Assembly: GCA_002502175.1 (NCBI GenBank)
Contig: DAPQ01000060.1
Location: 7,784 to 71,783 of the forward strand
DNA length: 64,000 nucleotides
Direction of reading: 5' to 3'
DNA from: Euryarchaeota archaeon UBA19
GTDB lineage: Archaea > Thermoplasmatota > Poseidoniia > Poseidoniales > Thalassarchaeaceae
Within the stretch, counting starts at the first letter, position 1. Each line of letters starts with the position of its first letter. The position numbers and the translations under genes are program-made. Below the pieces are notes generated by a model. That model did no database searches, was not told the origin of the DNA, and worked only from the letters and a program-made list of their open reading frames with translations. This document shows positions 6,039-48,524 of the stretch, in pieces.

Positions 6039-7109
6039 ATGAGGTTTGGGGGAGCTAAATGGTCAAATCATGACCGACTAACTCAAGCGAGTAGGTTCTC
6101 TCCGCGAGGTATGGCTGACCACTCTGGGACTTGGGTCTACGAGGGGGCAGCCGCCGAAAGACTATGGCAAAAATCAGCGATTGGTAGACCAAATGGAGAG
6201 GGAAAACTAGAGTTATCTCCGGCTGAGACATTGTTCGTTCACTATCACAGGCACATAGACCTACCAACAAATGATTGGATGAATCACGCACTGAATCAAA
6301 ACCCGATGCTATTACAAGAATATTCTATCTTAGAGGCTCTTCGTGTACCGGGTAACAAGATTGTTTTATCTCAAAATATGGGGCTATTTTCTCAACAAAT
6401 TCACCCTAAGTCTTGGGCTACTCGATGGACTTCGAATACTCATCCAAGAAATAGTAAAGCGATTTCCGAAATACGATGGTTTCATGAATCCGATAAATTG
6501 GATGCAATAGAATTACACCAATGGACAATTGATGTAAGCAATTCCGGGAGAACGCCGGAGGTTTTGGTTGTAGATGAAGAGTTGAGTGTTGTAACATACC
6601 AACTATCCTCTCAAAACCCCCGTGGATCATTTCAAGATCAAGAGGCAATAGAATCTCTAACTAATTTATCTGGAGGAATTACCTCAGCCGACGGTTTGCT
6701 ATATCCATCCGATGATTGGAAAATCCAACAATTAGGAGTACCCACCGCAGGGGGTATTCATCTCGATTCAATCACATGTGAAATTATTCAAGGATTAAAT
6801 CCGCTATCGGAAGGCGCAATGATTCTTTCTGACTTGCTTAATAGGGGTCTCGTAATTCGACCCGGATTCAAGTACGGTACTAGATGGAGATGTTATGATA
6901 AGCCTCTAGGAGAGGATCATGCACCTTTCCTCGTAGTCTTGCCAGAGGATGCACCAAGAGATTGGGCCGGTGCTTGCCTCGCCTCCAGATTAGCATCTGG
7001 AGTAAACAAAATTTGGTTACACCCTGTCAATAATGGAGATTCATGGAGTTATCTAGCGATAACTAGACCACCTGCTGACTCACGATGGTCGAATCCAAGT
7101 AAACGCTGA
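6039..7109 (+). CDS. endA: tRNA-splicing endonuclease EndA, tandem two-unit form
   Basis: The C-terminal catalytic unit 'GFKYGTRWRCYDK...HAPFLVVL...RLASGVNKIW' matches the EndA catalytic domain (GxKYGxDFxxY ... H ... K). Length (~330 aa from the likely start at M25, 'MADHSG') indicates a duplicated-unit EndA as in Euryarchaeota/Thermoplasmatota. Confidence 0.55.
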   Translation: MRFGGAKWSNHDRLTQASRFSPRGMADHSGTWVYEGAAAERLWQKSAIGRPNGEGKLELSPAETLFVHYHRHIDLPTNDWMNHALNQNPMLLQEYSILEALRVPGNKIVLSQNMGLFSQQIHPKSWATRWTSNTHPRNSKAISEIRWFHESDKLDAIELHQWTIDVSNSGRTPEVLVVDEELSVVTYQLSSQNPRGSFQDQEAIESLTNLSGGITSADGLLYPSDDWKIQQLGVPTAGGIHLDSITCEIIQGLNPLSEGAMILSDLLNRGLVIRPGFKYGTRWRCYDKPLGEDHAPFLVVLPEDAPRDWAGACLASRLASGVNKIWLHPVNNGDSWSYLAITRPPADSRWSNPSKR

Positions 7110-7120
7110 TTTTTTTCACT
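7110..7120 (+). terminator. oligo-T tract directly after the endA stop (archaeal intrinsic terminator-like)
   Basis: The sequence 'tga ttttttt cac' lies immediately after the stop codon at 7107-7109. Confidence 0.3.
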
Positions 7121-7190
7121 TTTACTCGCTATAATATACCCCCCTGCCTACAAAAAGAAGGTTAGGCGATTTGATCCGCCAAGAAAGCCC

Positions 7191-7448
7191 ATGGGTCGAA
7201 CAGTTGCAACTTGGAGGATGAGAGGGGAAGAAAGAATAGAGGGGTGGAAGCAGTTTCGTAGAACTTTGAGACCGCAAGAACGTTCGGCTTACGATTCGAT
7301 GGTTAATGCCGCGAGAAACAGAGCGGCGGCTTGTGGAATGATACCCACGGTCGACCCTATGGAACCAATATTTCTAGCGATGTTAGTCGAAGCGTACGAG
7401 AGAATCTCAAAAATCGAAGACGAAATTGAGAGGTTGAGGAATGGATGA
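7191..7448 (+). CDS. small hypothetical protein; start of polB overlaps its end by 8 nt
   Basis: 85-aa ORF preceded by an AT-rich 'ctataatata' TATA-like element about 55 nt upstream. Charged helical C-terminus. No recognisable domain. Confidence 0.25.
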   Translation: MGRTVATWRMRGEERIEGWKQFRRTLRPQERSAYDSMVNAARNRAAACGMIPTVDPMEPIFLAMLVEAYERISKIEDEIERLRNG

Positions 7449-9828
7449 AGGATGGATCCTTGATTGTCATCTAGATATCAAAACCGAATGTATGAGTTTA
7501 TGGATAAAGAAAGACGATGGAGAAGTTCAACAAATCCTAATGCCATGGTCATTCACGATACATGTTCATGGAGAATCGCACAGATTAGATGAACTAGGTA
7601 GAGCCCTTTCTAGACCTGAATACCAACGTCCATTTGGAGCACTATCATTGAGAAGGGAAAGGCATCGTACCTCACATGAATCACAAAAACAGGTGGAAGT
7701 CCTGGCAGTTAATTTACAGAAGCCATCGAAGATAAGAAAAATTGCAGAGATGATTGATGCAAATGGTTCATGGCGAAATTTCGAGCTTTTTTCCGTTGAC
7801 CCAAAAATCACTCAGAAATTTTTGTTAGACCTCAAAACCCATCCATTTGGGAGAGTGAAGATAATTGGAAACCAAATTTTCCCCTTAGATACAAGAGACG
7901 AAGTTGATTGGCAACTTCCACCTCTTAGAATCATCGAACTCGATGTTTGTTGCCTAGATGTAAATGGTAAAAGAAAGGCTAGCGCACCAATTTCTAGTAT
8001 CACAATAGTTGACAAGGGAGTAATTAATTGTGAAAGCAAATCATTCAGTCAAACTTTGGTTGCCGACGCATATACTTGCTATGCCCATATGTTAGATGAT
8101 TTCCACAGAAAAATAGAGGAAATTGATCCCGACATTGTAATCACCCATGATGGAGACAGTGTCGACATTCCTGCATTGATTAGACTCGCCGAGAAGTCGG
8201 GAGTGAAGCTGAATATTAGTAGAAATGGTAGAGAAAGTAAACCTCGCTCTCAAGAACGTGTGGCTTGGAGCTACGGCCGACTTCTAAGAAAGGAAGCGTA
8301 CCATTCCTTAGAAGGGCGATTACACATTGATATGGGGCGCTCTTTCATAGGCAAAGAAGGTGGGATTGAGGGGTTAATGGAATTATCAAGAGCTTCGGGA
8401 TTACCAGCAGCGGACCTATCGAGATTATCACCAGGTTCAGCAATTTCAGCTATGCAAATTCGACAATCGATTGAAGATGGAGTATTGATTCCTTGGAAAA
8501 AGAATAGGCCAGAAGATATGAAAGATGCTGAACAAATAATGTTGGCTGATCGGGGTGGACTATACTTAGACCCAATTGTTGGTGTTCACCAAGGTGTTAT
8601 TGAACTAGATTTTGCGAGTTTATTCCCCAGCATAATTGCAACGAGGAACATTAGTCCTGAAACTATGAATTGTTTGTGCTGTAATCTAGATTCGGACCAT
8701 TCAAGAAAAGATGGGAGATTATCGTTGAATGTAAAAACAGCTGCTGCTGAAATTCAAAAAAGGCAAAAAAATAATGAAAATCTGAAATTAGTTGTACCCG
8801 AACTTGGATTACATGTCTGTACGAAAAGGCATGGATTCCTAGGTAGAGTGGTAGCACCTATAATTGAAAGACGGAATGTATTGAAAGAAAAAAGGCAGAA
8901 CAAAGGAGACGTTTGGGACAGAAGACAAAATGTTCTGAAGTGGATCTTGGTAACTTGTTTTGGCTATACTGGTTATCGAAATGCACGCTTTGGTAGAATA
9001 GAATGTCACGAGGCTATTTGCGCTTGGTCTCGTGAAATACTCCTGACCACTATTGAAGAAGCAAACAAAGAAGGATGGGATTGCATACACGCTATAGTAG
9101 ACGCTATTTGGATTAAAGATAGAAAGAATCGAAGCGAGGAAGAAAAACGAGATTCATACCAACGTTTGATGGTTAGAATTGAAGCATTGGTTGGCATACC
9201 TCTTGAACTAGAACATGAATATGATTGGATTGCATTCATCCCAAATAGAACTACAGGAGTTGGTGCACTCACCAAATACTATGCAAAGATAGGAGAAGAG
9301 TGGAAGGTTAGAGGGATTGAATTACGCCAGCATTCAACATGTGAATGGATAAGGCAATTACAAGAAGATATGATGGAAGATTTAGCGAATGACCCATTCG
9401 GAATTGGACCGAAAATCGCGGCTCAACGTGTTGAAGATGAAATATCTCGTATGAAGAGAGGGGAAGTACCATTGAGTCAATTGATAGTAGGTAGAAGAGT
9501 ACGATATGAAACTGGTAATCATCGTGTAATGAATCTGACAGCTGCGGCTCTTCTCCGTGCCCGAGCGCTAGAACAAATCACACCTCCTGGAAGGAAGGTT
9601 CGTTTTGCCGTAACAGGTTGGAAAAGAGAACAGCCTACCGACAGGGTGCGATTACAATCAGAAATAGACTCAGGAACGAATTCCATTTCAGGACAAAAAG
9701 GAGATGCTGAATTCTATACTCCACTAGCTGTTCGAGCCGCCACTTCGATACTATCTCCCTTCGGTTGGAATGAAGATGTTGTAACTGCAGGCTCGAAGAG
9801 GCAATCTAGTCTAGAGGTTTGGATGTGA
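7441..9828 (+). CDS. polB: family B DNA polymerase (PolB) paralog with degenerate catalytic motifs (likely inactivated)
   Basis: Motif A 'DFASLFPSII' is present. Exo II-like 'THDGDSVDIPAL' is present. Motif B reads 'KWILVTCFGYTGY' (the conserved N of KxxxNSxYG is V here). The motif C position reads 'HAIVDAIW' instead of YGDTDS. The KKRY position reads 'TKYYA'. The Exo I position reads 'IELDV'. Length of 795 aa is typical of archaeal PolB. Confidence 0.7.
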   Translation: MDEGWILDCHLDIKTECMSLWIKKDDGEVQQILMPWSFTIHVHGESHRLDELGRALSRPEYQRPFGALSLRRERHRTSHESQKQVEVLAVNLQKPSKIRKIAEMIDANGSWRNFELFSVDPKITQKFLLDLKTHPFGRVKIIGNQIFPLDTRDEVDWQLPPLRIIELDVCCLDVNGKRKASAPISSITIVDKGVINCESKSFSQTLVADAYTCYAHMLDDFHRKIEEIDPDIVITHDGDSVDIPALIRLAEKSGVKLNISRNGRESKPRSQERVAWSYGRLLRKEAYHSLEGRLHIDMGRSFIGKEGGIEGLMELSRASGLPAADLSRLSPGSAISAMQIRQSIEDGVLIPWKKNRPEDMKDAEQIMLADRGGLYLDPIVGVHQGVIELDFASLFPSIIATRNISPETMNCLCCNLDSDHSRKDGRLSLNVKTAAAEIQKRQKNNENLKLVVPELGLHVCTKRHGFLGRVVAPIIERRNVLKEKRQNKGDVWDRRQNVLKWILVTCFGYTGYRNARFGRIECHEAICAWSREILLTTIEEANKEGWDCIHAIVDAIWIKDRKNRSEEEKRDSYQRLMVRIEALVGIPLELEHEYDWIAFIPNRTTGVGALTKYYAKIGEEWKVRGIELRQHSTCEWIRQLQEDMMEDLANDPFGIGPKIAAQRVEDEISRMKRGEVPLSQLIVGRRVRYETGNHRVMNLTAAALLRARALEQITPPGRKVRFAVTGWKREQPTDRVRLQSEIDSGTNSISGQKGDAEFYTPLAVRAATSILSPFGWNEDVVTAGSKRQSSLEVWM

Positions 9829-10565
9829 CGGAATTCCAGAAGTGAGGTTTGACCAAACGGCAATTGTGCCCAAATCATTTCCCTATCAAGGGACAAAAGG
9901 TGTAATCTCTTTCTTGCCAAACCACCATTAGATTTTTTCGAGCGTGGTTCATCAATCCTAAGTATATCATCTGTAAATTGTCTCAGAATCTCGCGCATAT
10001 CCTTGCTTAACGGTGGTGATGAATTACGACTTGATGTGAGAACCACCAAGGAATTCGAATCTTTACTAATATCCCTACATCGTTGAAGTGTTGCCTTCAA
10101 CAAAGAGCGTCCCTCCGATTTCTTAAGTTGAGCATCCATAAACATCCTAGGTATTTGTGAAATCACGATTATTCTTCCCTCTATCAGTCTATTCGGTGAA
10201 TTTTTTGATCCGGCTTCATTAGACAGTCGTTGAATAATCGACGCTGTTTGGTGAGCTGTGAAACCACGACATATATGGAAATTCGACAATACTTCACGAT
10301 TTTTACAACCTCGTATTCGCAACAAAGGAAGAAGAGGGGAAGGGTCGAATGCCATCCCTCCATCAATCCAATGTACTGGTATAGATTCAGACAAATCGTT
10401 AGCAACCATTCGTAATAACGCACCTTGGAATTCCTTTCTATGTTGATCAATAAGAAGGACAGAGGGCACCTTTGGTTTTGGTAATACTAGATCTATTGCT
10501 GAATCACCCCAAGAAATACTCGTTGGCCGAGACATAGTCTGAAGGCAATACAAATCACCTATCAA
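9714..10565 (-). CDS. RadB/RecA-superfamily paralog lacking Walker A and the Walker B Asp (predicted ATPase-dead)
   Basis: Collinear with RadB: 'ISWGDSAIDLVL' (cf. TGxxxLDxLLGGG), 'VHWIDGGMAFDPSPLL' (cf. VAYVDTEGGFSPERL), 'IIVISQIPRMF' (cf. LVVVDSFTAHY), 'SLVVLTSS' (cf. VAVIVVNQ). At the P-loop position it has 'DQHRKEFQG' instead of GxxGxGKT. Confidence 0.45.
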   Translation of the reverse strand: MIGDLYCLQTMSRPTSISWGDSAIDLVLPKPKVPSVLLIDQHRKEFQGALLRMVANDLSESIPVHWIDGGMAFDPSPLLPLLRIRGCKNREVLSNFHICRGFTAHQTASIIQRLSNEAGSKNSPNRLIEGRIIVISQIPRMFMDAQLKKSEGRSLLKATLQRCRDISKDSNSLVVLTSSRNSSPPLSKDMREILRQFTDDILRIDEPRSKKSNGGLARKRLHLLSLDREMIWAQLPFGQTSLLEFRHIQTSRLDCLFEPAVTTSSFQPKGDSIEVAARTASGV

Positions 10566-10612
10566 TCAGCCAACGAGAGAGAGGTATTGAGTCGGTTAGT
10601 GAAAGTAATGCT

Positions 10613-12763
10613 TCACAATAATTGAGATTCGTCGTCTTCGTTTGTAGGTTGATTTTGGTTAATTGGTTTAGGATTGGATGTAGGCATCAATGAAATCGCG
10701 AGTAAAACGAAAATAACCATGATTGCATTGCTAGGTTGAACGAGCCAAGAAAGAGGGCTATCCCCGTTAAATGATGATTGTGCAGTAAGTGTAACAGGAA
10801 CTCTTTGTTCTAGTCCAAAGGAGTCGACGAAAACGATTTCACCTTCTGCAATCATACCTGGATTCAATAATCCATCAGGGACTATGTTTAGGACGATTTC
10901 AGGGCATGCTTGTAATTCACCAGCGGTTTGGACTGTGGCTATTCGAGAGAGTGCTCCCTCGACTGCGATAGAGTATGTTCGTGAACCTTCACCCAAGCAA
11001 GATGTGGATAGTTTGAGCTGGGAGTTTTCATCCCAAGGAATAACCGCAGTAAGGTGTTCCGAAGTGATTCTATGACCTATGGAATACCAGTCTAAGTCAA
11101 TTTGCCAATTCTCTTCCCCTTCACAACCAATTGTGCCTCGAAGATATCCTGAACCCTGAGCCATTTGGTTGGCGGTAGCAAGTTCTACTGTAGATTCCCC
11201 TTGCTCAATTGAAACGATTCTTGGAGCGAACCCTTCTGAATTGGTTGAAGTATAGACGTCAATTTCTAATTGACAAGGAGTTTCTGCAAATACTGTGGCA
11301 AAAATTGTTTCTTGTCCGAGAATTTCCAAAGGACCTCTAGGAGGCAATACATCGACAGTCGTAGGATTTTCAGGATAATCGAAATTAATTGTTGTCTCTT
11401 CAGAATTGATACTCTCAATTGTCGCTGTCCATTGTACCAAACGACCTCGACTATCTCGTATTTGCATGCCATTTGCTCCCAATTGATCTCCTTGGGTAAA
11501 AGCGTCCCCGGGTGCGCCACTATCTCGGCCTCGTTGCAAGGCCGCATCGCCATCCGCTTCGAGAATTTTCAGCCACGCCTTTTCCGGGTCCGTGTTGACA
11601 AGGTTGTTACCTTCATCGCCATTATTTTGATCTTGAATTTCGACAATGACTCCATGGCCAGGCAGGGCCGAATCGAATCCCGAATTGACTCTAAGTGTGA
11701 ATCGGACCCATTCATTTGGTGCAATTGGAATTTCAAGGTATGAACCTCCTTGAGATATTCCTTGGATAGTATAATTGGAAAAATTCGGATCTACCTGAAT
11801 ACCTCGCTTGACCCCAATTAGGTCAAGAGTAGAGGAGGAGGGCAGGGCAGGTATTGCACCATTGCCGTTCCAATTACCACTAGCCATTATCCCCCAGTCA
11901 CCAATGCCATTCCAATTACTGGTTGGCAAATCGCTGTGAACATCATACAAATCTAAAGCACCCATTTGGTGTAACATTTCATGCACAACTGTACCTACAC
12001 CAGAATGTACTGAAGCGATTGTGAAGTGTTCAATTCTCCAATCTCCAATTTCTAATGGTTCTTGCATTCCTGTGAAGTGGCTCCAAAGTGAATCAGTGCC
12101 ACCATTCATTTCCTGAGGTTGTGCAGAGTGCAGAATTAGTATTCTGTCGATTACTCCATCCGAGTTCGGGTCCCAATTGGAAAGGTCAATTCCTTGTAGT
12201 TGGTCTGAGGCAACATCACGAAGCAAAGTTTCAGCCCCATTCCCATCTGCACCATGATCTCTCTCTCCGGCAACATCTTCACCCCAATTTTTGACTCCAT
12301 ATGGTGCTTGCCAAACTTCGTCAAATAATGTCACTGATAATGACGAAGACCCAGCAGTCATTTGGTCAATGTATTCCTCAGCAGAACCATCTCCGATTAG
12401 AATATCTGAGGCGGTTGTAGTTGAAAATTGGTCATTCGGAAATTCAACTTGAAGGACTAACCATTGTTCATCAATCTGAACTCCCAATAATGGAAGCCCA
12501 CTATCGTCATCATTGGACACTCGATTGGAGGCCCAATTATCGACCATATCGGAATTAAAATGCACATATATGGCACCTAGCAACAACAAAGCCACTAGCC
12601 CTGCCCTAAGTCCCTTCATACCGATATCGAACATCTCCGTTCCCTTGAAGGGAACGGATTGTTGAATTGTCTTCGCTTCAATTTCAAGGCAATCTACGAT
12701 ATTCTGACGAGTAAAACTGCAAAGATTGTTTTCTCCAGTTTGGTAAATTAGAATTGTCTTCAT
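10613..12763 (-). CDS. secreted zincin metallopeptidase (HExxH) with C-terminal membrane anchor
   Basis: N-terminal signal/TM 'LVALLLLGAIYVHF'. 'VVHEMLHQMGALDLYD' is an HExxH zinc-binding motif. Gly/Asn-rich beta regions. C-terminal hydrophobic helix 'AIMVIFVLLAISLM' followed by an acidic tail. Confidence 0.55.
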   Translation of the reverse strand: MKTILIYQTGENNLCSFTRQNIVDCLEIEAKTIQQSVPFKGTEMFDIGMKGLRAGLVALLLLGAIYVHFNSDMVDNWASNRVSNDDDSGLPLLGVQIDEQWLVLQVEFPNDQFSTTTASDILIGDGSAEEYIDQMTAGSSSLSVTLFDEVWQAPYGVKNWGEDVAGERDHGADGNGAETLLRDVASDQLQGIDLSNWDPNSDGVIDRILILHSAQPQEMNGGTDSLWSHFTGMQEPLEIGDWRIEHFTIASVHSGVGTVVHEMLHQMGALDLYDVHSDLPTSNWNGIGDWGIMASGNWNGNGAIPALPSSSTLDLIGVKRGIQVDPNFSNYTIQGISQGGSYLEIPIAPNEWVRFTLRVNSGFDSALPGHGVIVEIQDQNNGDEGNNLVNTDPEKAWLKILEADGDAALQRGRDSGAPGDAFTQGDQLGANGMQIRDSRGRLVQWTATIESINSEETTINFDYPENPTTVDVLPPRGPLEILGQETIFATVFAETPCQLEIDVYTSTNSEGFAPRIVSIEQGESTVELATANQMAQGSGYLRGTIGCEGEENWQIDLDWYSIGHRITSEHLTAVIPWDENSQLKLSTSCLGEGSRTYSIAVEGALSRIATVQTAGELQACPEIVLNIVPDGLLNPGMIAEGEIVFVDSFGLEQRVPVTLTAQSSFNGDSPLSWLVQPSNAIMVIFVLLAISLMPTSNPKPINQNQPTNEDDESQLL

Positions 12764-13790
12764 CTAACCAATTTAGTCCGTCTAATTCAGTTTGATTGGA
12801 TTCAATGTAAGAGCGAATATCGATTGGTAAAGGATATCCATTACATCCAGTGATAGTCAAGCGAGTGAGTGAATTGCGTTGCACCATTTCTCTCAATGCC
12901 AATTGTTCATTTTCGTCCAAACATAGCGCACTTGGTCGTAGAATTGGTATTTTTTGGTGCAACCAATTTTCCTTAAATGACGGGCAAGCCCCATCACATG
13001 AACAGTCAACTAAAGCTATTTTTTGAATAGTACCATCTTTGTTGACAAACTGGGTAAATTCTGGATTACGCGGTCCCAATGGACCTTTTGGCACTGTTCT
13101 AGATATTACCTCAGCAGTTACCAATACTAATATTGCAATCAAAATTCTAAGTCCCTCGAAAATTTCTGGTAGGGTCAAAATTAGCAAACCACCGACAATA
13201 GCAAAGACTCGGTTTCTAAATCTACTCCGGCCTTCTTCAACCAAACCAAATAATCTTGAGAGGGAAAGGAATAGTGTAGAAGTAAATGTAAGAATTAAGA
13301 TCCAAGAAATACCACTAGCCAAAGAAAATAACTCTGATGCGTCATATCTCGGAGTGACTGAAGAAATAGAGTCTAGTTGAATACCTGCTTCGATGTAATA
13401 AGGAATCATACTAAACCATACCCAATACAAAATGCTCGGAACAATTATTGCATTCAAAATCAAGTATGTATCTAGCCACCTCTTCTCATTAGGTAGAAGT
13501 CCTGCATTGGCGAAAAATCTCAAATCGAGAGAAAAAAATGGAAGTGAAATGACAGATGCAATAATGATTACAGCCATGAATCTCATTTCTATCCAATCAT
13601 AAGGACCATAGACAGATAGAGCGCCTGAGGGTGACTGAGAAAGGCTCCAATTATTGAGGATTGTTTCGACCCAAATTGTTGTTACTGCAGAAGCAATAAG
13701 AAATACAAACGCACTCCTTCGGATTAAAGAGTGTAAATCTTCCAAATGGCTAGTGACCGGTTTACGGTCTACTAGACTACTGTTTGACAT
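12684..13790 (-). CDS. tatC: TatC-like Sec-independent translocase subunit with ~110-aa Cys-rich C-terminal extension
   Basis: N-terminal 'SHLEDLHSLIRRSAF' resembles the TatC start motif (HLxELRxRL). 'NAGLLPNEKRW' is the conserved TatC loop motif. There are six predicted TM helices. The C-terminal extension carries 'CSCDGACPSF' and 'TGCNGYP'. Confidence 0.45.
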   Translation of the reverse strand: MSNSSLVDRKPVTSHLEDLHSLIRRSAFVFLIASAVTTIWVETILNNWSLSQSPSGALSVYGPYDWIEMRFMAVIIIASVISLPFFSLDLRFFANAGLLPNEKRWLDTYLILNAIIVPSILYWVWFSMIPYYIEAGIQLDSISSVTPRYDASELFSLASGISWILILTFTSTLFLSLSRLFGLVEEGRSRFRNRVFAIVGGLLILTLPEIFEGLRILIAILVLVTAEVISRTVPKGPLGPRNPEFTQFVNKDGTIQKIALVDCSCDGACPSFKENWLHQKIPILRPSALCLDENEQLALREMVQRNSLTRLTITGCNGYPLPIDIRSYIESNQTELDGLNWLDEDNSNLPNWRKQSLQFYSSEYRRLP

Positions 13791-43758: not shown

Positions 43759-45651
43759 TTATGGTTCTCCAACCTCTGCTAGGAATTCACAGCGGCAGGC
43801 AGGACACCTAGCCTTTACTGGACGTCTGTTAATTGGGATTTTTAGAGTTTGATCGCAACTAGGGCAAGATAGCAAATCATCCACTGAGCGAGCGGATATC
43901 TCTTGAGGAGTTGAAGTGGAAGGTGAATCATTTTGGGTCGCAATGTTTTCTTCTTCTGAAATTTTGTCTTCATCTTCTGACTCGATCGATTCGACCATGA
44001 ATCGAGCGGTACAAGCAGGACATTTCACGGCACCAGAATGGCTGTTCGGAATGTGCAGACGTTGGTCGCATTCGGGACACGGTATCTCTCTTTTTTCTAC
44101 TGCTGCAGACTTTTTCTTTTCCCCTCTGGCTTCTCTTAGTCGATTAAATCTTGATTTTCCTGTGTCCTCTACGCTTTCCGATACTGTTCGATATAGAACT
44201 AAAATGAACATTACAAGAACTAAACCTGTGACCGTTCCATAAATTGCGGCGACCAAATCAAATGGCAATTCTGCCTCTGCATTATTGTCGGAAAATGTTT
44301 CTATCTCCAAAAGAAGGCTTTCGGTAAGTCCACTAGTTACCCATATTATATGCACATCAACAACTTTTGAATCGGGCCACTGTTCGATGGTGAATTCACT
44401 GCTAAATGATTCACTTGGATTAATTGAAAAAGTTGGAATTGTGTCGAGTATCATGTTATCTGAATTTCGCACTACTCTTACCTCTCCTGCTAAAGTCGGA
44501 GTATTACCATTATTGGTTAAGGAGAACGGGATTTTTACACTTTCACCCACCACAGGAGCTGTGCTTACACCTTCAGAAGTAACCACAAGATCTAGTATAG
44601 GAGGAGTGAGTGTAGTCTGAATTTCAATTTCCTCTTCGGCCGTCCAAGTAACTGTATTTACTCGAATAATTAGTGCGTCTGCTGAAGGATTTCCTAGATC
44701 GAGGTTTAGTTGCCTTCGACCAGGATCCATGGTAATTAGGAAAAATTGTAAATTAGACTCAATAGTTTGATCGATTATTGCAACTTCGATTTCAACTTCC
44801 CTAGATCGGCCATCACTAAGGTAAAGAGAGAGTTCTGAACTTAGGCCATCTTCAAGATTCCAGTCCAAAGAATCAACTACTAACTGGATTGATTGAGGCT
44901 CTAAAACTTCAATCACAGTGGTACCGTTGAGTTCTCTTGCGACACCTCCATTGCTGGAATGAACCTTCCAATCTAGTTTGATTGAGCCTGAAGAAGAGGG
45001 TGAAAATGATGCGGAAACCTCCCTACTCGAACCGGGATTAATCAGTATGGCTTGGCCTTGAATAGGGTCTGACCCCTCAGGTGATATAACCAAACTAACA
45101 GATTCAGGATTCTGACCTTGATTATGGACCAATATTGAAGCGGTAAGTGAATCCCCAACATGGGCAGGCTCGCCAATAAGTGCTATTTCGGAGGAGCTAG
45201 CAGCAGTCAAGTTCAGAGGATTGGGTTCTACTAGTAAAGTAAGACTTTCACTCTGACCCGAAGAATCAATTCCGAAAATCAGATTCAAAACTCCTTCAGG
45301 CAGTGGACCGAATGAAATGTTGACTATCACAGTCGAATCTGAACCCTCAAGGAAACCAGTGAGTTCAGGAGTGGTTTGACCGTCCAATTCCATCACAAAC
45401 CACCACTCATCATGTCCAGCAGTAGTATCACTATTTGATACCTCGATGGATAATTGAATTCGGTCGCCTGCAAAAGCAGATGAATTCTCCGAAGGAAGGG
45501 ATGTTGAACCATCGATGATTGTATTATCCCAATCTGCTGAATTTTCTATACTGAATCTATCCTGGGCACTAACATTTAGCGAAATTAGGGTTACAAATAC
45601 AACAGAGGCTGTTATCACAAGCAAGTTGTGAGGACGAACGCCTGTATTCAT
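43759..45651 (-). CDS. surface protein: signal peptide, large extracellular Ig/CARDB-like region, single TM, cytoplasmic tail with two zinc ribbons
   Basis: Signal 'LVITASVVFVTLISLNVSA'. TM 'LVAAIYGTVTGLVLVMFILVLY'. Cytoplasmic 'CPECDQRLHIP...VKCPACTARF' and 'CPSCDQTLKIP...ARCPACRCEF'. Acidic linker between them. Confidence 0.45.
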   Translation of the reverse strand: MNTGVRPHNLLVITASVVFVTLISLNVSAQDRFSIENSADWDNTIIDGSTSLPSENSSAFAGDRIQLSIEVSNSDTTAGHDEWWFVMELDGQTTPELTGFLEGSDSTVIVNISFGPLPEGVLNLIFGIDSSGQSESLTLLVEPNPLNLTAASSSEIALIGEPAHVGDSLTASILVHNQGQNPESVSLVISPEGSDPIQGQAILINPGSSREVSASFSPSSSGSIKLDWKVHSSNGGVARELNGTTVIEVLEPQSIQLVVDSLDWNLEDGLSSELSLYLSDGRSREVEIEVAIIDQTIESNLQFFLITMDPGRRQLNLDLGNPSADALIIRVNTVTWTAEEEIEIQTTLTPPILDLVVTSEGVSTAPVVGESVKIPFSLTNNGNTPTLAGEVRVVRNSDNMILDTIPTFSINPSESFSSEFTIEQWPDSKVVDVHIIWVTSGLTESLLLEIETFSDNNAEAELPFDLVAAIYGTVTGLVLVMFILVLYRTVSESVEDTGKSRFNRLREARGEKKKSAAVEKREIPCPECDQRLHIPNSHSGAVKCPACTARFMVESIESEDEDKISEEENIATQNDSPSTSTPQEISARSVDDLLSCPSCDQTLKIPINRRPVKARCPACRCEFLAEVGEP

Positions 45652-46614
45652 TGTCTGACCCTCGGAGCGGGTCAGTGTATCAAGGAAACCCTAATTCAAG
45701 GTCACGTAGTGACCTTTATGATGGGCCCTAATTTCCGCCGTTTGCATATGGAGTCTGAAGGCCTGCTAGCGGTGACGCCTGACGAATTGGCGCAGGCTTT
45801 GTTAGATAGGAGGGTTTTGCTGAAGGAGCAATTACCCACTGTTATTCGTACACTCGAGGCCGAGGAACAGAACCTTGCTCCAAAGCTATCTCGTTCAGCA
45901 GATAAACACAAACAGGCAAATGAAATTGTTGCTAAGTTGAAAGTGGAACGCGACCAAGCACAAATCGCAGCCCGAAATCTGCTCCCGAAGGTAAAGGAAT
46001 ATCGGGATAAATTGGTGGAATCTGGTGGGATGGTAAACCTTGACCCAGATTGGAAAAAAGAAAAATTGTTTGAAGAATTGGATGAAATCGAAGAAAATAT
46101 CCAGACTTCGGCGTTAGATCACAAAGCTGAGAAAAAGATGATTGAACGTAGAAAAAAGTTGATTCAACAAAACGAAAAATGGCTCAAGGAAAGAAGAGAT
46201 TCAAACCCGGAAATGGCAGATTACATCGATTCTAGAAGAGAGATGTCTTACCAATTTACAATTGCCAACAAGGCTCATAGAAATATGATCAAAGCCGTGG
46301 AAAAGGCGCAACCGTTGCATGAGAAAAAAGTAGCGATGGAGGCAGAAATAAGAGACGTCAGAAGACAATTGGACAGAGCCAAAGAATTACTGTCTCAATC
46401 TGACCAAGCAATAGAACATTGGCAACGCCGATTAAAGGATGGGTATGGAGAATTAGGACTAGGATTCCCTGACCTCCTTAAAGACATGATTCAAGTCCAG
46501 GAGGGAGGAGACTCTAGTTTCGCTAAGAGGCACAAGAAAAACAAACAGAATTCAAAGAAAAATAGTGTTGAGAATGGGCGAATAAACTCCGATTCGAGGG
46601 GTGAGGAAGAATGA
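45628..46614 (+). CDS. charged coiled-coil protein (paralog family); probable start at 45721 or 45748
   Basis: Heptad-rich. Central block 'DWKKEKLFEELDEIEENIQTSALDHKAEKKMIERRKKLIQQNEKW'. Basic C-terminus 'KRHKKNKQNSKK'. Confidence 0.4.
   Translation: MRTNACIHCLTLGAGQCIKETLIQGHVVTFMMGPNFRRLHMESEGLLAVTPDELAQALLDRRVLLKEQLPTVIRTLEAEEQNLAPKLSRSADKHKQANEIVAKLKVERDQAQIAARNLLPKVKEYRDKLVESGGMVNLDPDWKKEKLFEELDEIEENIQTSALDHKAEKKMIERRKKLIQQNEKWLKERRDSNPEMADYIDSRREMSYQFTIANKAHRNMIKAVEKAQPLHEKKVAMEAEIRDVRRQLDRAKELLSQSDQAIEHWQRRLKDGYGELGLGFPDLLKDMIQVQEGGDSSFAKRHKKNKQNSKKNSVENGRINSDSRGEEE
45698..45716. promoter_or_regulatory. perfect 19-bp palindrome AAGGTCAC-GTA-GTGACCTT in divergent intergenic region (candidate metalloregulator operator)
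   Basis: Exact 8-bp inverted repeat with a 3-bp spacer. Lies between the minus-strand operon that encodes the DtxR-like regulator and the plus-strand coiled-coil genes. Confidence 0.4.
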
Positions 46615-47576
46615 GCGATGGTTTGTTCGATGATCTTGAGGAGCTACCTCATGATGAAATCGAAGAGAAGGTCAAACAATTAGACCGTGAATTACGCTCA
46701 TTAGATGAAGAATTCAACTCACTGCGTCAAGAACGAAGAAACCAAGTGGAAATTGTAAAATCGTTGAGAGGAGCATTCGATGGAATTCAAGAGGTGAATT
46801 CTGAGAGGCGAATGCTGTTGAGAGAATTTCATGAAATAAAGAAAAAGGCAGACAAGCATAGAGCATTACGAGATAGAGTCAACCTATCTATTCCGCCACC
46901 TGCTTCTGTATTAGAAGAATGGATGGCAGACACACACTCTAAGTTAACCACCATAGATAACGACCTTACAGCAGTCCCCACCATAAATAGGGAATTGGAT
47001 TCATTTCGACGATTTTTCGAATTACAAGCAGCTGTGGTACGTAAGCGTGAGGCAGAAGATGCTCATGCACAGTATGTAGTTCAAATTGAGGATTTACGAA
47101 AAGTTACATCTAAATTAGACGCAACAAAGAAGGCTGGCAAGGATGCCGCAGATTCAGCAACAGAAAATAATGAAGTTAATCCTGACAACATAACTCGTAG
47201 TGAAATTAGGAAAATGAGCAAGCGAATCAGCAGCATAGATAAGCGGTTAGACACGATTAAATCACAACGTAAGAAATTACGAAGGGAATCAGGTAGAGTC
47301 CGGTCATATCAGAAAATAACTTCAGGAAGAGGGAGAAAAATCCGTCTAACTGATGTAAAAGAGAGAGCAAGTAAAGGAGGTTCACTAAACGCCAATGAAT
47401 TATCTGCTTTACTAGATTCAGGCAGTTTGACAGGTATCACAAATGAAGCAAGCAAACCGGAGTCTACGAAATCAAACGCACCTAGGAAAGGTAGAACGGG
47501 AAAGAAAGGAATGCGAAGACTAGGTGTCACTAGAGGTGGACCAAGGAAGGGTAACTCCGCTAGTCGGAGGGAATGA
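46611..47576 (+). CDS. charged coiled-coil protein (paralog family), Arg/Lys-rich C-terminal tail
   Basis: 4-nt overlap with the upstream paralog. Heptad-rich. C-terminus 'PRKGRTGKKGMRRLGVTRGGPRKG'. Confidence 0.4.
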   Translation: MSDGLFDDLEELPHDEIEEKVKQLDRELRSLDEEFNSLRQERRNQVEIVKSLRGAFDGIQEVNSERRMLLREFHEIKKKADKHRALRDRVNLSIPPPASVLEEWMADTHSKLTTIDNDLTAVPTINRELDSFRRFFELQAAVVRKREAEDAHAQYVVQIEDLRKVTSKLDATKKAGKDAADSATENNEVNPDNITRSEIRKMSKRISSIDKRLDTIKSQRKKLRRESGRVRSYQKITSGRGRKIRLTDVKERASKGGSLNANELSALLDSGSLTGITNEASKPESTKSNAPRKGRTGKKGMRRLGVTRGGPRKGNSASRRE

Positions 47577-47642
47577 GGAAAAAAACACCTCAAATGAACT
47601 TATATGGTAAACTTAGGACGTTAATTCAAGGGGCATGATTGT

Positions 47643-48524
47643 ATGAAGATGGAAAGCGGGGAAATTCGCGGGATTCTTCAACCACTCTGTGACGATATTC
47701 AAGAACAGATATCCTACAATCGGGAAGAAAGGGACCAATGGAATTCGAAAGTCCGTAAATTACTCGACGAACGCAACGAGTTAAATCGGCAAGTTAAGGA
47801 ATTAATCACAGAGGTGCAGAATCAAAAATCTCTACGAGATGATGCAAACCAAACCGTTAGAGAATTAAAAGAAATAAGGGCTGAAAGGACTGAGGTACTA
47901 AGAGTAATTAGGACCGATTTTAGGGAGAAAATAGCCGAAAATGGCTCTCAAGAAGAAAGACAGGAGAAACACGATAAAACTCGCTCACCAGGAAGAATTA
48001 GAACAGAAATAGACCGTTTGGAAAAGCAATACAACGAAGGTCGGTTCCTTGGTAAAAAGGAAAAAGAGTTCGTCGCTAAAATGAAAAAGTTACATCAAGA
48101 ACTTAGAGAAGCTAAGGAAAAGAAATCCGATGGTGGAATAAGAGAATTAAAGATTCAACTTAGAGATGCTGAAAAGAAACAAGAAGACGCCCACAAGAAG
48201 GTGAAGCGGGCAGTAATAGGCGCTCAAGAAGCCCATGACTTGATGGCTGAATTATCGGAAGAGGTCGATAGATTACGAGAGAAGGCAAATTCAGCTCAGT
48301 CAGGAGTTACTCGGGCTAAAAGAGAAGCAGATTCTCTCCATGGAAGATACATTGTATCGTTGAGGTGTATACATTCCATGCAAGATTTACTCAAGGCTCT
48401 GGAAACTAGAGAAGGCGGTGTTACAGAGGACGACGAGCAAGTCGAAGTCGCTGATCTAATGACACGACTAATGTCTGGAGACACATTATCTACTGACGAA
48501 ATCATGGCGCTTCAGAGGAATTGA
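47643..48524 (+). CDS. charged coiled-coil protein (paralog family)
   Basis: Central block 'GRFLGKKEKEFVAKMKKLHQELREAKEKK' and heptad-rich flanks. 293 aa. Confidence 0.4.
   Translation: MKMESGEIRGILQPLCDDIQEQISYNREERDQWNSKVRKLLDERNELNRQVKELITEVQNQKSLRDDANQTVRELKEIRAERTEVLRVIRTDFREKIAENGSQEERQEKHDKTRSPGRIRTEIDRLEKQYNEGRFLGKKEKEFVAKMKKLHQELREAKEKKSDGGIRELKIQLRDAEKKQEDAHKKVKRAVIGAQEAHDLMAELSEEVDRLREKANSAQSGVTRAKREADSLHGRYIVSLRCIHSMQDLLKALETREGGVTEDDEQVEVADLMTRLMSGDTLSTDEIMALQRN

Follow-up and report, generated by a model that had tools for sequence, protein, structure and literature searches.

A convergent gene beside PPB2 and PolB2 in a Marine Group II archaeon probably encodes iRadA, an inactive RadA/Rad51-core subunit of the PolB2 translesion complex

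Introduction

A stretch of 64,000 nucleotides (nt) from Euryarchaeota archaeon UBA19 (Poseidoniales, Thalassarchaeaceae; GenBank assembly GCA_002502175.1, contig DAPQ01000060.1, positions 7,784 to 71,783 of the forward strand) was analysed. This whole stretch is called the window. A small gene and a B-family DNA polymerase gene lie on its plus strand, and an open reading frame (ORF) on the minus strand runs towards the polymerase gene and overlaps its 3' end. An earlier note, made from the letters alone, had drawn attention to this ORF as an ATPase-dead paralog of RadB and RecA. We estimate a probability of about 85% that the ORF is iRadA, the inactive RadA/Rad51-core subunit of the archaeal PolB2 translesion complex ('PolB2 mutasome'), in a Marine Group II archaeon. 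It is an already published kind of protein, and Poseidoniales loci are already in the published dataset.

The linkage of PolB2 to arCOG07300 and to inactivated RadA-family genes was described by Makarova, Krupovic & Koonin in 2014, and some of the latter genes were so decayed that only HHpred detected them (PMC4104785). Timinskas, Timinskas & Venclovas (2025) named the two partners PPB2 and iRadA and modelled a heteropentamer of one PolB2, one iRadA and three PPB2 subunits (PMC11791011). In their model, a Rad51-oligomerisation-like motif of PolB2 holds iRadA, and PPB2 reaches in between these two proteins with its N-terminal 'MGRT' arm. PCNA-binding motifs were found in iRadA or PolB2, rarely in both. 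Their AlphaFold-Multimer and AF3 complex models include Poseidoniales representatives, and Poseidoniales are listed as operon group '3b (PPB2-PolB2-iRadA)'. The text of that paper does not state whether '3b' means a convergent orientation.

Genes at the locus

The three genes and their features are collected in Table 1. The window has a G+C content of about 43%. The minus-strand ORF was present at 9714..10565 with 283 amino acids (aa) in the ORF listing of the window, as the earlier note had it, and residue numbers refer to this ORF. The coding sequence (CDS) probably begins at the conserved ATG at 10535 and would then have 273 aa, because homolog clusters mostly begin at the equivalent of M11. 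In several clades the iRadA ATG is preceded, at a distance of about 20-30 nt, by a conserved 'TTGATAGG(T/C)' segment, which lies at 10536-10565 on the minus strand of the window. The spurious extension of the ORF to a TTG start is due to this segment, which may be a 5' untranslated region or an initiator element.

Table 1. Positions of the PPB2, PolB2 and iRadA genes in the window and of the motifs and promoter elements associated with them
Feature	Position	Strand	Remark
TTTCAC element (7114-7119), then TTTTACTC	7108..7131	+	-77 from PPB2 start; similar to the Sulfolobus damage-response element (DDRE)
PPB2 (arCOG07300 / DUF8156), 85 aa	7191..7448	+	N-terminal 'MGRT' arm motif; stop overlaps PolB2 start by 8 nt
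PolB2, 795 aa	7441..9828	+	B-family polymerase
PolB2 Exo I 'LDVCC' (Glu lost)	7936-7953	+	aligned to Thermococcales 'FDIET'
PolB2 motif A 'LDFASLFPSII'	8605-8637	+	
PolB2 motif C 'HAIVDAIWI' (IVD replacing DxD)	9088-9114	+	aligned to Thermococcales PolB 'YIDTDGLY'
PolB2 C-terminal PCNA-interacting (PIP) box Q-S-S-L-E-V-W-M, then stop	9802..9825	+	collinear with Thermococcales PolB QTGLTAWL
Probable iRadA CDS	9714..10535	-	homolog starts at M11 equivalent; mechanical ORF reaches TTG at 10565
iRadA C-terminal tail, aa 247-283 and stop	9714..9827	-	antisense to last 38 PolB2 codons; predicted disordered
iRadA PIP-like box Q239-T-S-L-L-E-F-R246	9828..9851	-	ends exactly at PolB2 stop codon
iRadA Walker B position 'IIVISQ' (aa 132-137)	10155..10172	-	Asp to Ser; next residue Q, E, D or N among orthologs
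iRadA 'VHWIDGGMAFDPSPLL' (aa 64-79)	10329..10376	-	strand beta-2 and loop; aligned to RadA 'VIWIDTENTFRPERI'
iRadA degenerate P-loop position 'DQHRKEFQG' (aa 40-48)	10422..10448	-	between strand beta-1 and next helix
ACTTTCAC element, TTTCAC at 10604-10599	10593..10610	-	-69 from iRadA ATG

The polymerase gene was identified as PolB2 by the replaced first Asp of motif C, the decayed exonuclease site, the linkage to PPB2 and iRadA and a C-terminus that runs collinear with the PIP box of PolB3. It scored 402 bits against NF004418, under the subfamily cut-off of 692. Haloarchaeal PolB2 shows the same IVD pattern ('HGIVDSIWV') in a published table (PMC11791011). The earlier note had taken this polymerase as catalytically dead. 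Sulfolobus Dpo2/PolB2 has IID at this place and is an active, damage-induced translesion 'extender' required for targeted mutagenesis (PMC11791011). The window polymerase is therefore not to be called dead.

PPB2, a third partner that the earlier note had missed, begins with MGRTVATWRMR and matched a published Poseidoniales PPB2 at 40% identity (E = 3e-21). DUF8156 was assigned to the orthologous small genes in eight homolog loci (L001-L008). Across homolog loci with enough sequence, the polymerase gene started 8 nt before the stop of the small gene.

Fold of iRadA and loss of the ATPase residues

Pfam and NCBIfam scans of the iRadA ORF gave nothing significant, only weak CSM2 (E = 0.07 in Pfam), RadA and GP63 noise. 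The fold therefore had to be placed by way of a profile, a structure model and transitive homologs. A search of 5.8 billion proteins gave 15 homolog clusters at 37-97% identity, none of them named or carrying a Pfam domain. The profile of these 15 orthologs was compared with the PDB, and the top matches were all RadA, Rad51, RAD51D and DMC1 (best E = 7e-4). In this alignment the RadA segment 'VIWIDTENTFRPERI' lay over 'VHWIDGGMAFDPSPLL', Walker B LLIVDS over IIVISQ, and VFVTNQ over VVLTSS. The AlphaFold2 model had a confident alpha/beta core at residues ~13-236, where the predicted local distance difference test score (pLDDT) of blocks was mostly ~75-94 and lower at 211-220, with ~80-92 as the general level of the core; residues 237-283 were disordered with pLDDT <50. 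Foldseek matched the model in the PDB to RAD51, DMC1, RadA, RAD51 paralogs and RecA with E~1e-11 and probability 1.0. More distant relatives of iRadA (E 1e-10 to 1e-20) exceeded the Pfam Rad51 gathering score (51.9 bits for P0124 and 33.5 bits for P0046), and distant relatives also matched the NCBIfam RadA and RadB models below the cut-offs. The protein begins ~25 aa before strand beta-1 and corresponds to the RadA/Rad51 core, with no N-terminal DNA-binding/oligomerisation domain. It has the RadA/Rad51-core fold in a core-only architecture. The RecA-fold assignment of the earlier note was thus upheld by the profile, by the structure model with Foldseek and by the Pfam Rad51 matches of distant relatives.

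The lost motifs named in the earlier note were also confirmed, with the Walker A replaced by 'DQHRKEFQG' and the Walker B Asp lost in 'IIVISQ'. No GxxxxGK[ST] was found in any close ortholog of iRadA, and a canonical P-loop was present in just 1 of the 164 family sequences collected. This meant that the loss of the P-loop was a trait of the family and not a sequencing artefact, an explanation that the earlier note had kept in view. The family hallmark h-h-W-I-D-G-G places a Gly in iRadA where the 'IDTE' of RadA has the catalytic Glu, which is a third catalytic loss. The earlier prediction of an ATPase-dead protein is thereby extended: Walker A, the catalytic Glu and the Walker B Asp are all replaced, and iRadA is predicted to have no ATPase activity. 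The label 'multimerisation/ssDNA region', which had been given to VHWIDGG, had to be dropped. The segment forms strand beta-2, which follows the Walker A helix, and is no DNA-binding loop; the Rad51 polymerisation motif sits N-terminal to the core, in the region that is missing from iRadA.

Conservation of iRadA and of the gene triad

The lengths of the homolog clusters were mostly 272-275 aa, and the rest had 261-298 aa apart from one fragment. The closest relatives came from metagenome-assembled genomes (MAGs) of Marine Group II (Poseidoniales), several of them Thalassarchaeaceae, with protein identities of 97% (L010) and 90% (L013 and L014). In the ortholog alignment 51 columns were invariant across the 37-97% identity range. 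The dN/dS of the core was 0.07-0.20 over many pairs. The core of iRadA is under strong purifying selection, and the gene is conserved across Marine Group II archaea. An exhaustive profile search gave 567 relatives at E <= 1e-3.

The triad of DUF8156/PPB2, PolB2 and a convergent iRadA was kept in L001-L008 and in 31 GTDB loci wherever the contig was long enough, and it persisted in loci whose remaining neighbours differ entirely. It was also found at a distant relative, P0042 (E = 7e-20 to the profile), where a Y-family polymerase gene adjoins. When the ortholog profile was compared with a published Poseidoniales iRadA from the supplement of PMC11791011, hhalign gave a probability of 98.5% and E = 1.7e-15. 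The partnership with the adjacent polymerase that the earlier note had proposed is therefore conserved, and it is the published PolB2-iRadA-PPB2 association (PMC4104785, PMC11791011).

The flanks of the module varied. A gene for SRAP (abasic-site shield) adjoins iRadA in L004-L006, and an IMS/Y-family polymerase gene adjoins it in L007 and L008. Neither is at the module flanks in this window, where an M6 peptidase gene directly follows iRadA. Two loci had interrupted reading frames, polB2 in L027 (a MAG) and iRadA in L040 (a single-cell assembly). Either the assemblies are in error at these places or the module is occasionally pseudogenised.

The 3' overlap and the C-terminal tail

The overlap of the two convergent genes, iRadA and polB (7441..9828), was exactly 115 nt (9714-9828), in agreement with the ~115 nt stated in the earlier note. 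In Marine Group II loci with both gene ends readable it was 115, 121, 130 or 142 nt, and it was 49 nt in L007 and L008. The suspicion that a gene end had been mis-called did not hold, since the overlap recurs in Marine Group II loci and the PolB2 C-terminus is collinear with Thermococcales PolB to the last residue, PIP box included. Judged from these alignments, the PolB2 C-terminus is genuine and both gene ends are true ORF ends.

Because the wobble positions of both frames fall together, an iRadA codon is complementary to the second and first positions of one PolB2 codon plus the wobble of the codon before it. The antisense pairs in the tail include Ala-Ala, Arg-Arg, Pro-Gly and Val-Thr. The tail could be rebuilt exactly from the PolB2 codons. 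In this phase the tail is therefore dictated by the protein sequence of PolB2, and it looks 'conserved' in the ortholog alignment because it mirrors PolB2. It also follows from this phase that an antisense stop is possible only opposite a Tyr, His or Gln codon of PolB2. The stop codon of iRadA, TAG, pairs with the wobble of Phe758 and the 'TA' of Tyr759, within the conserved FY/YY of PolB2. Each locus has one or two further antisense stop opportunities in the overlap, at the PIP-box Gln. In the case of L007, the iRadA frame stops opposite this Gln, and the overlap is 49 nt.

Selection on the tail was examined with few sites and non-independent pairs. The naive dN/dS of the tail was 0.04-0.39, similar to the core, and it was uninformative, since PolB2 is mirrored in the first two positions of the tail codons. 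A test on wobble classes was used instead. At shared wobble sites where PolB2 is two-fold and iRadA four-fold degenerate, transversions were nearly nil (0.008-0.09). At sites where PolB2 is four-fold and iRadA two-fold degenerate, they were 0.13-0.52, much like the 0.20-0.44 of sites that are free in both frames. The four-fold synonymous divergence of PolB2 inside and outside the overlap was 0.22 vs 0.20, 0.35 vs 0.37 and 0.65 vs 0.60, and in the most diverged bin 0.75 vs 0.81.

The main competing explanation concerns this tail. Residues 247-283 could be a selected dual-coded segment, for example a contact to PolB2, PPB2 or PCNA, or the overlap could couple the expression of the subunits through complementary mRNA 3' ends. 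Some observations lean this way and count against a purely passive tail. The frame is open, with an overlap of 115-142 nt, in every Marine Group II clade examined with both gene ends readable. An earlier stop, which arises when the codon before the PolB2 PIP Gln ends in T, is unused by every lineage of this group (0/23 loci). In the closest divergence bin, iRadA-changing transversions were slightly depleted (0.13 vs 0.20 at free sites). Oligo-T runs point to transcripts that extend beyond the stop of the opposite gene. The tail may accordingly be under weak selection. However, the tail sequence is fully set by the first and second codon positions of PolB2, the synonymous divergence of PolB2 is not reduced inside the overlap, and among more diverged pairs the transversions that change iRadA match neutral ones in frequency. 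K/N, D/E and F/L flips in the tail track PolB2-silent changes. The unused stop involves only ~4-5 independent lineages, with a chance probability of ~0.2. Other members of the iRadA family end a few residues past the PIP-like motif, and the low pLDDT of the model covers the whole tail. A selected or coupling role was judged distinctly improbable. The selection tests favoured a passive tail, whose 37 residues would be read-through under hardly any constraint of their own or none. Functionally, iRadA most likely ends with the PIP-like box Q239-R246, and the overlap is a by-product of gene packing. The tight coupling by overlap proposed in the earlier note was not supported, as the tail behaves as passive antisense read-through of the PolB2 C-terminus.

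PIP-like boxes of iRadA and PolB2

The QTSLLEFR of iRadA fits Qxx[L]xx[F] with no second aromatic residue, lies 37 aa from the C-terminus and is conserved in orthologs, where Q239, S241 and L242 are invariant. Distant family members also show a C-terminal Q..L.[DE]F. A PCNA motif of iRadA is published (PMC11791011). Both PIP-like boxes were present in most Marine Group II loci examined, as Qxx[LM]xxW in PolB2 and Q[TVS]SLxxF in iRadA, and the box of iRadA was degenerate in the L034 and L039 clades. The two boxes are encoded back-to-back on opposite strands within 50 nt.

Two ideas on the origin of the iRadA box were rejected. The 8-mer CAAACCTC occurs twice in the window and encodes 'QTS' in both QTSLLEF and QTSRLDC, which prompted the idea that the iRadA box arose by duplication of the antisense PolB2 box. 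In other clades the antisense segment is HAS or QES while the PIP box remains QTSLL; the repeat is due to the PolB2 'EVW' found in this clade only. A QxxL read antisense as a ready-made PIP box was also excluded, as the spacing in this phase becomes QxxxL.

Promoter elements

Of 26 distinct loci, 22 had a tandem TTTCA[CG] element upstream of the PPB2 gene, at ~55-78 nt, the most distant clades included. Upstream of iRadA it was found in 12 of 21 loci, the window among them, at ~69-77 nt and occasionally at 95-102 nt. As a control, other upstream regions of the same loci were inspected, and the tandem element was present in 4 of 150. The Sulfolobus Orc1-2 damage-response element has ANTTTC and the consensus AATAGTTTCRGWDTACTCWS. 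The sequence upstream of PPB2 in the window, TTTCACTTTTACTC, was likened to it. The TTTCA[CG] element might co-regulate the convergent units without co-transcription. In clades that lack TTTCA[CG] upstream of iRadA, both promoters share an 'AAAGTTCATyAyACCGCCG'-like element.

No orc1/cdc6 gene was found in the window, and the sole Walker-A-like match was unrelated. The few other intergenic TTTCA[CG] sites in the window, such as those upstream of the proteasome subunit and FtsZ genes, were considered as a regulon and set aside as probable chance matches. A scan of the window for bacterial-type promoters and terminators was uninformative for an archaeon.

A broader idea, which we regard as doubtful, joins the convergent pair with its 115-142-nt overlap to the shared promoter element. 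Mutasome subunits might be co-induced from opposite strands. If TTTCA[CG] were functional, it would point to an Orc1/Cdc6-type damage regulon with a cis-code common to Thermoproteota and Thermoplasmatota. In the same scheme the complementary mRNA 3' ends would possibly balance the expression of the mutasome subunits, and the back-to-back PIP boxes would let the complex engage two PCNA protomers.

Discussion

The window protein was compared with published iRadA (arCOG07763 / arCOG04294 / arCOG08101). Both have the Rad51/RadA core with no N-terminal domain and lack the ATPase residues, and the PIP-like box of the window protein may correspond to the C-terminal PCNA-binding motif of published iRadA. 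Both adjoin PolB2 with IVD for DxD and a small helical PPB2 with an MGRT arm, and SRAP occurs in some neighbourhoods. The window gene differs in being convergent to PolB2, with a 3' overlap of 115-142 nt conserved in Marine Group II, and in the 37-aa antisense-encoded tail after the PIP-like box. The Walker B Asp is lost here, whereas it is kept ('VVID') in the published Poseidoniales iRadA compared, and the window protein is too diverged for any Pfam match. PIP-like boxes are present here on both PolB2 and iRadA, a double occurrence that was reported as rare in the published survey (PMC11791011).

How the complex may work can be outlined from the literature. iRadA would neither hydrolyse ATP nor form filaments. 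It would be a non-enzymatic scaffold that docks on a Rad51-oligomerisation-like beta-alpha motif of PolB2, as in the published models. PPB2 would join as a trimer, one member of which places its MGRT arm between iRadA and PolB2, and the whole would be a PolB2:iRadA:PPB2(3) heteropentamer. The PIP box of iRadA, of PolB2 or of both would tether the complex to PCNA at stalled forks, where PolB2 would extend mispaired or lesion-opposed primer ends. In this window the iRadA frame would simply stay open past the PIP box and end opposite the conserved Tyr of the PolB2 'FY/YY'.

Some points speak against the assignment to the PolB2 complex. The three genes are mostly co-oriented in one operon in the published work, and in the window iRadA is convergent to PolB2, which makes co-transcription impossible. 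The PPB2 of the window gave no direct Pfam match. The proposed subunit contacts, stoichiometry and PCNA binding would follow from published AlphaFold models and Sulfolobus genetics.

A different function was also considered, namely that of a mediator, of the RadB type or another, which would assist RadA in homologous recombination independently of the polymerase. RadB retains the Walker A and B motifs and acts in recombination. Like RadB (TIGR02237), the window protein is a single-domain RecA-fold core of ~210-270 aa that lacks the N-terminal helix-hairpin-helix domain of RadA. Some distant relatives match the RadB model best in NCBIfam (P0042, 2.2e-11), and RAD51 paralog complexes are among the top Foldseek matches. 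However, the window protein has neither a Walker A motif nor the catalytic Glu nor the Walker B Asp. It had no TIGR02237 match at E <= 1, and the best relative reached 44 bits against a cut-off of 172.4. The RadB likeness proposed in the earlier note thus stands for the core-only architecture and fails for membership of the RadB family. Moreover, even loci that have diverged strongly all keep the linkage to PolB2 and PPB2, and the published modelling found PolB2 to be specific for iRadA over RadA (PMC11791011). This explanation was judged very unlikely.

Hardly any weight is left for a decaying pseudogene or a mis-called ORF opposite polB: the protein has no Pfam or NCBIfam match, its catalytic motifs are lost and its 3' end lies inside another gene, but the core is under purifying selection with its invariant columns, the fold prediction is confident, the wider family is large, only 115 of 822 nt overlap polB, and neither frequent frameshifts or stops among orthologs nor a dN/dS of ~1 was observed, with only the single-cell assembly L040 interrupted. 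The conservation check called for in the earlier note therefore came out in favour of a functional gene.

With the ORF taken as iRadA, other RecA-fold accessory proteins can be compared. The RecA of the E. coli Pol V mutasome (UmuD'2C-RecA-ATP) is likewise a RecA-family accessory subunit of a translesion polymerase, bound via a filament-interface-like motif, and this parallel was drawn explicitly in PMC11791011. The systems differ in that the RecA of Pol V is the active housekeeping recombinase with ATP and serves a Y-family polymerase, whereas iRadA is a dedicated ATPase-dead paralog with a B-family partner and has the putative clamp motif on the paralog itself. The bacterial ImuA-ImuB-DnaE2 mutasome also resembles the system, with a dedicated RecA-fold accessory in a damage-inducible mutagenic cassette that includes a dead polymerase-fold subunit. 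The partners of ImuA, the Y-family ImuB and the C-family DnaE2, are unrelated to those of iRadA, and no ImuA model matched in the NCBIfam scans of iRadA or its relatives. XRCC2 and the Csm2/Psy3 of the yeast Shu complex are similar in their RecA fold, degenerate nucleotide-binding sites and structural role. They modulate Rad51 filaments, and no polymerase partnership is known for them.

The full PPB2-PolB2-iRadA cassette is thus carried by these abundant ocean archaea, for which public records list iRadA as an unnamed protein with no Pfam domain. The locus also illustrates how two frames can seem dual-coded across a conserved antisense overlap although one is only a reflection of the other. 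For work on the tolerance of UV and DNA damage in surface-ocean archaea, leads are offered by the PIP-like boxes of PolB2 and iRadA and by the DDRE-like promoter element that the convergent units share.

Other observations in the window

The gene directly before PPB2 (6039-7109, plus strand) encodes a tRNA-splicing endonuclease of 356 aa that has an N-terminal and a C-terminal tRNA_int_endo domain; the same synteny was seen in L004. On the minus strand, the M6-peptidase ORF (10613-12763) overlaps the 3' end of the upstream TatC ORF (12684-13790) by 80 nt; the start of the M6 peptidase is probably further downstream than the mechanical call. Three consecutive plus-strand ORFs of ~290-330 aa at 45628-48524 encode K/E/R-rich, coiled-coil-like proteins, and the strong purine skew of this region (AT skew 0.31, GC skew 0.20) is explained by them.

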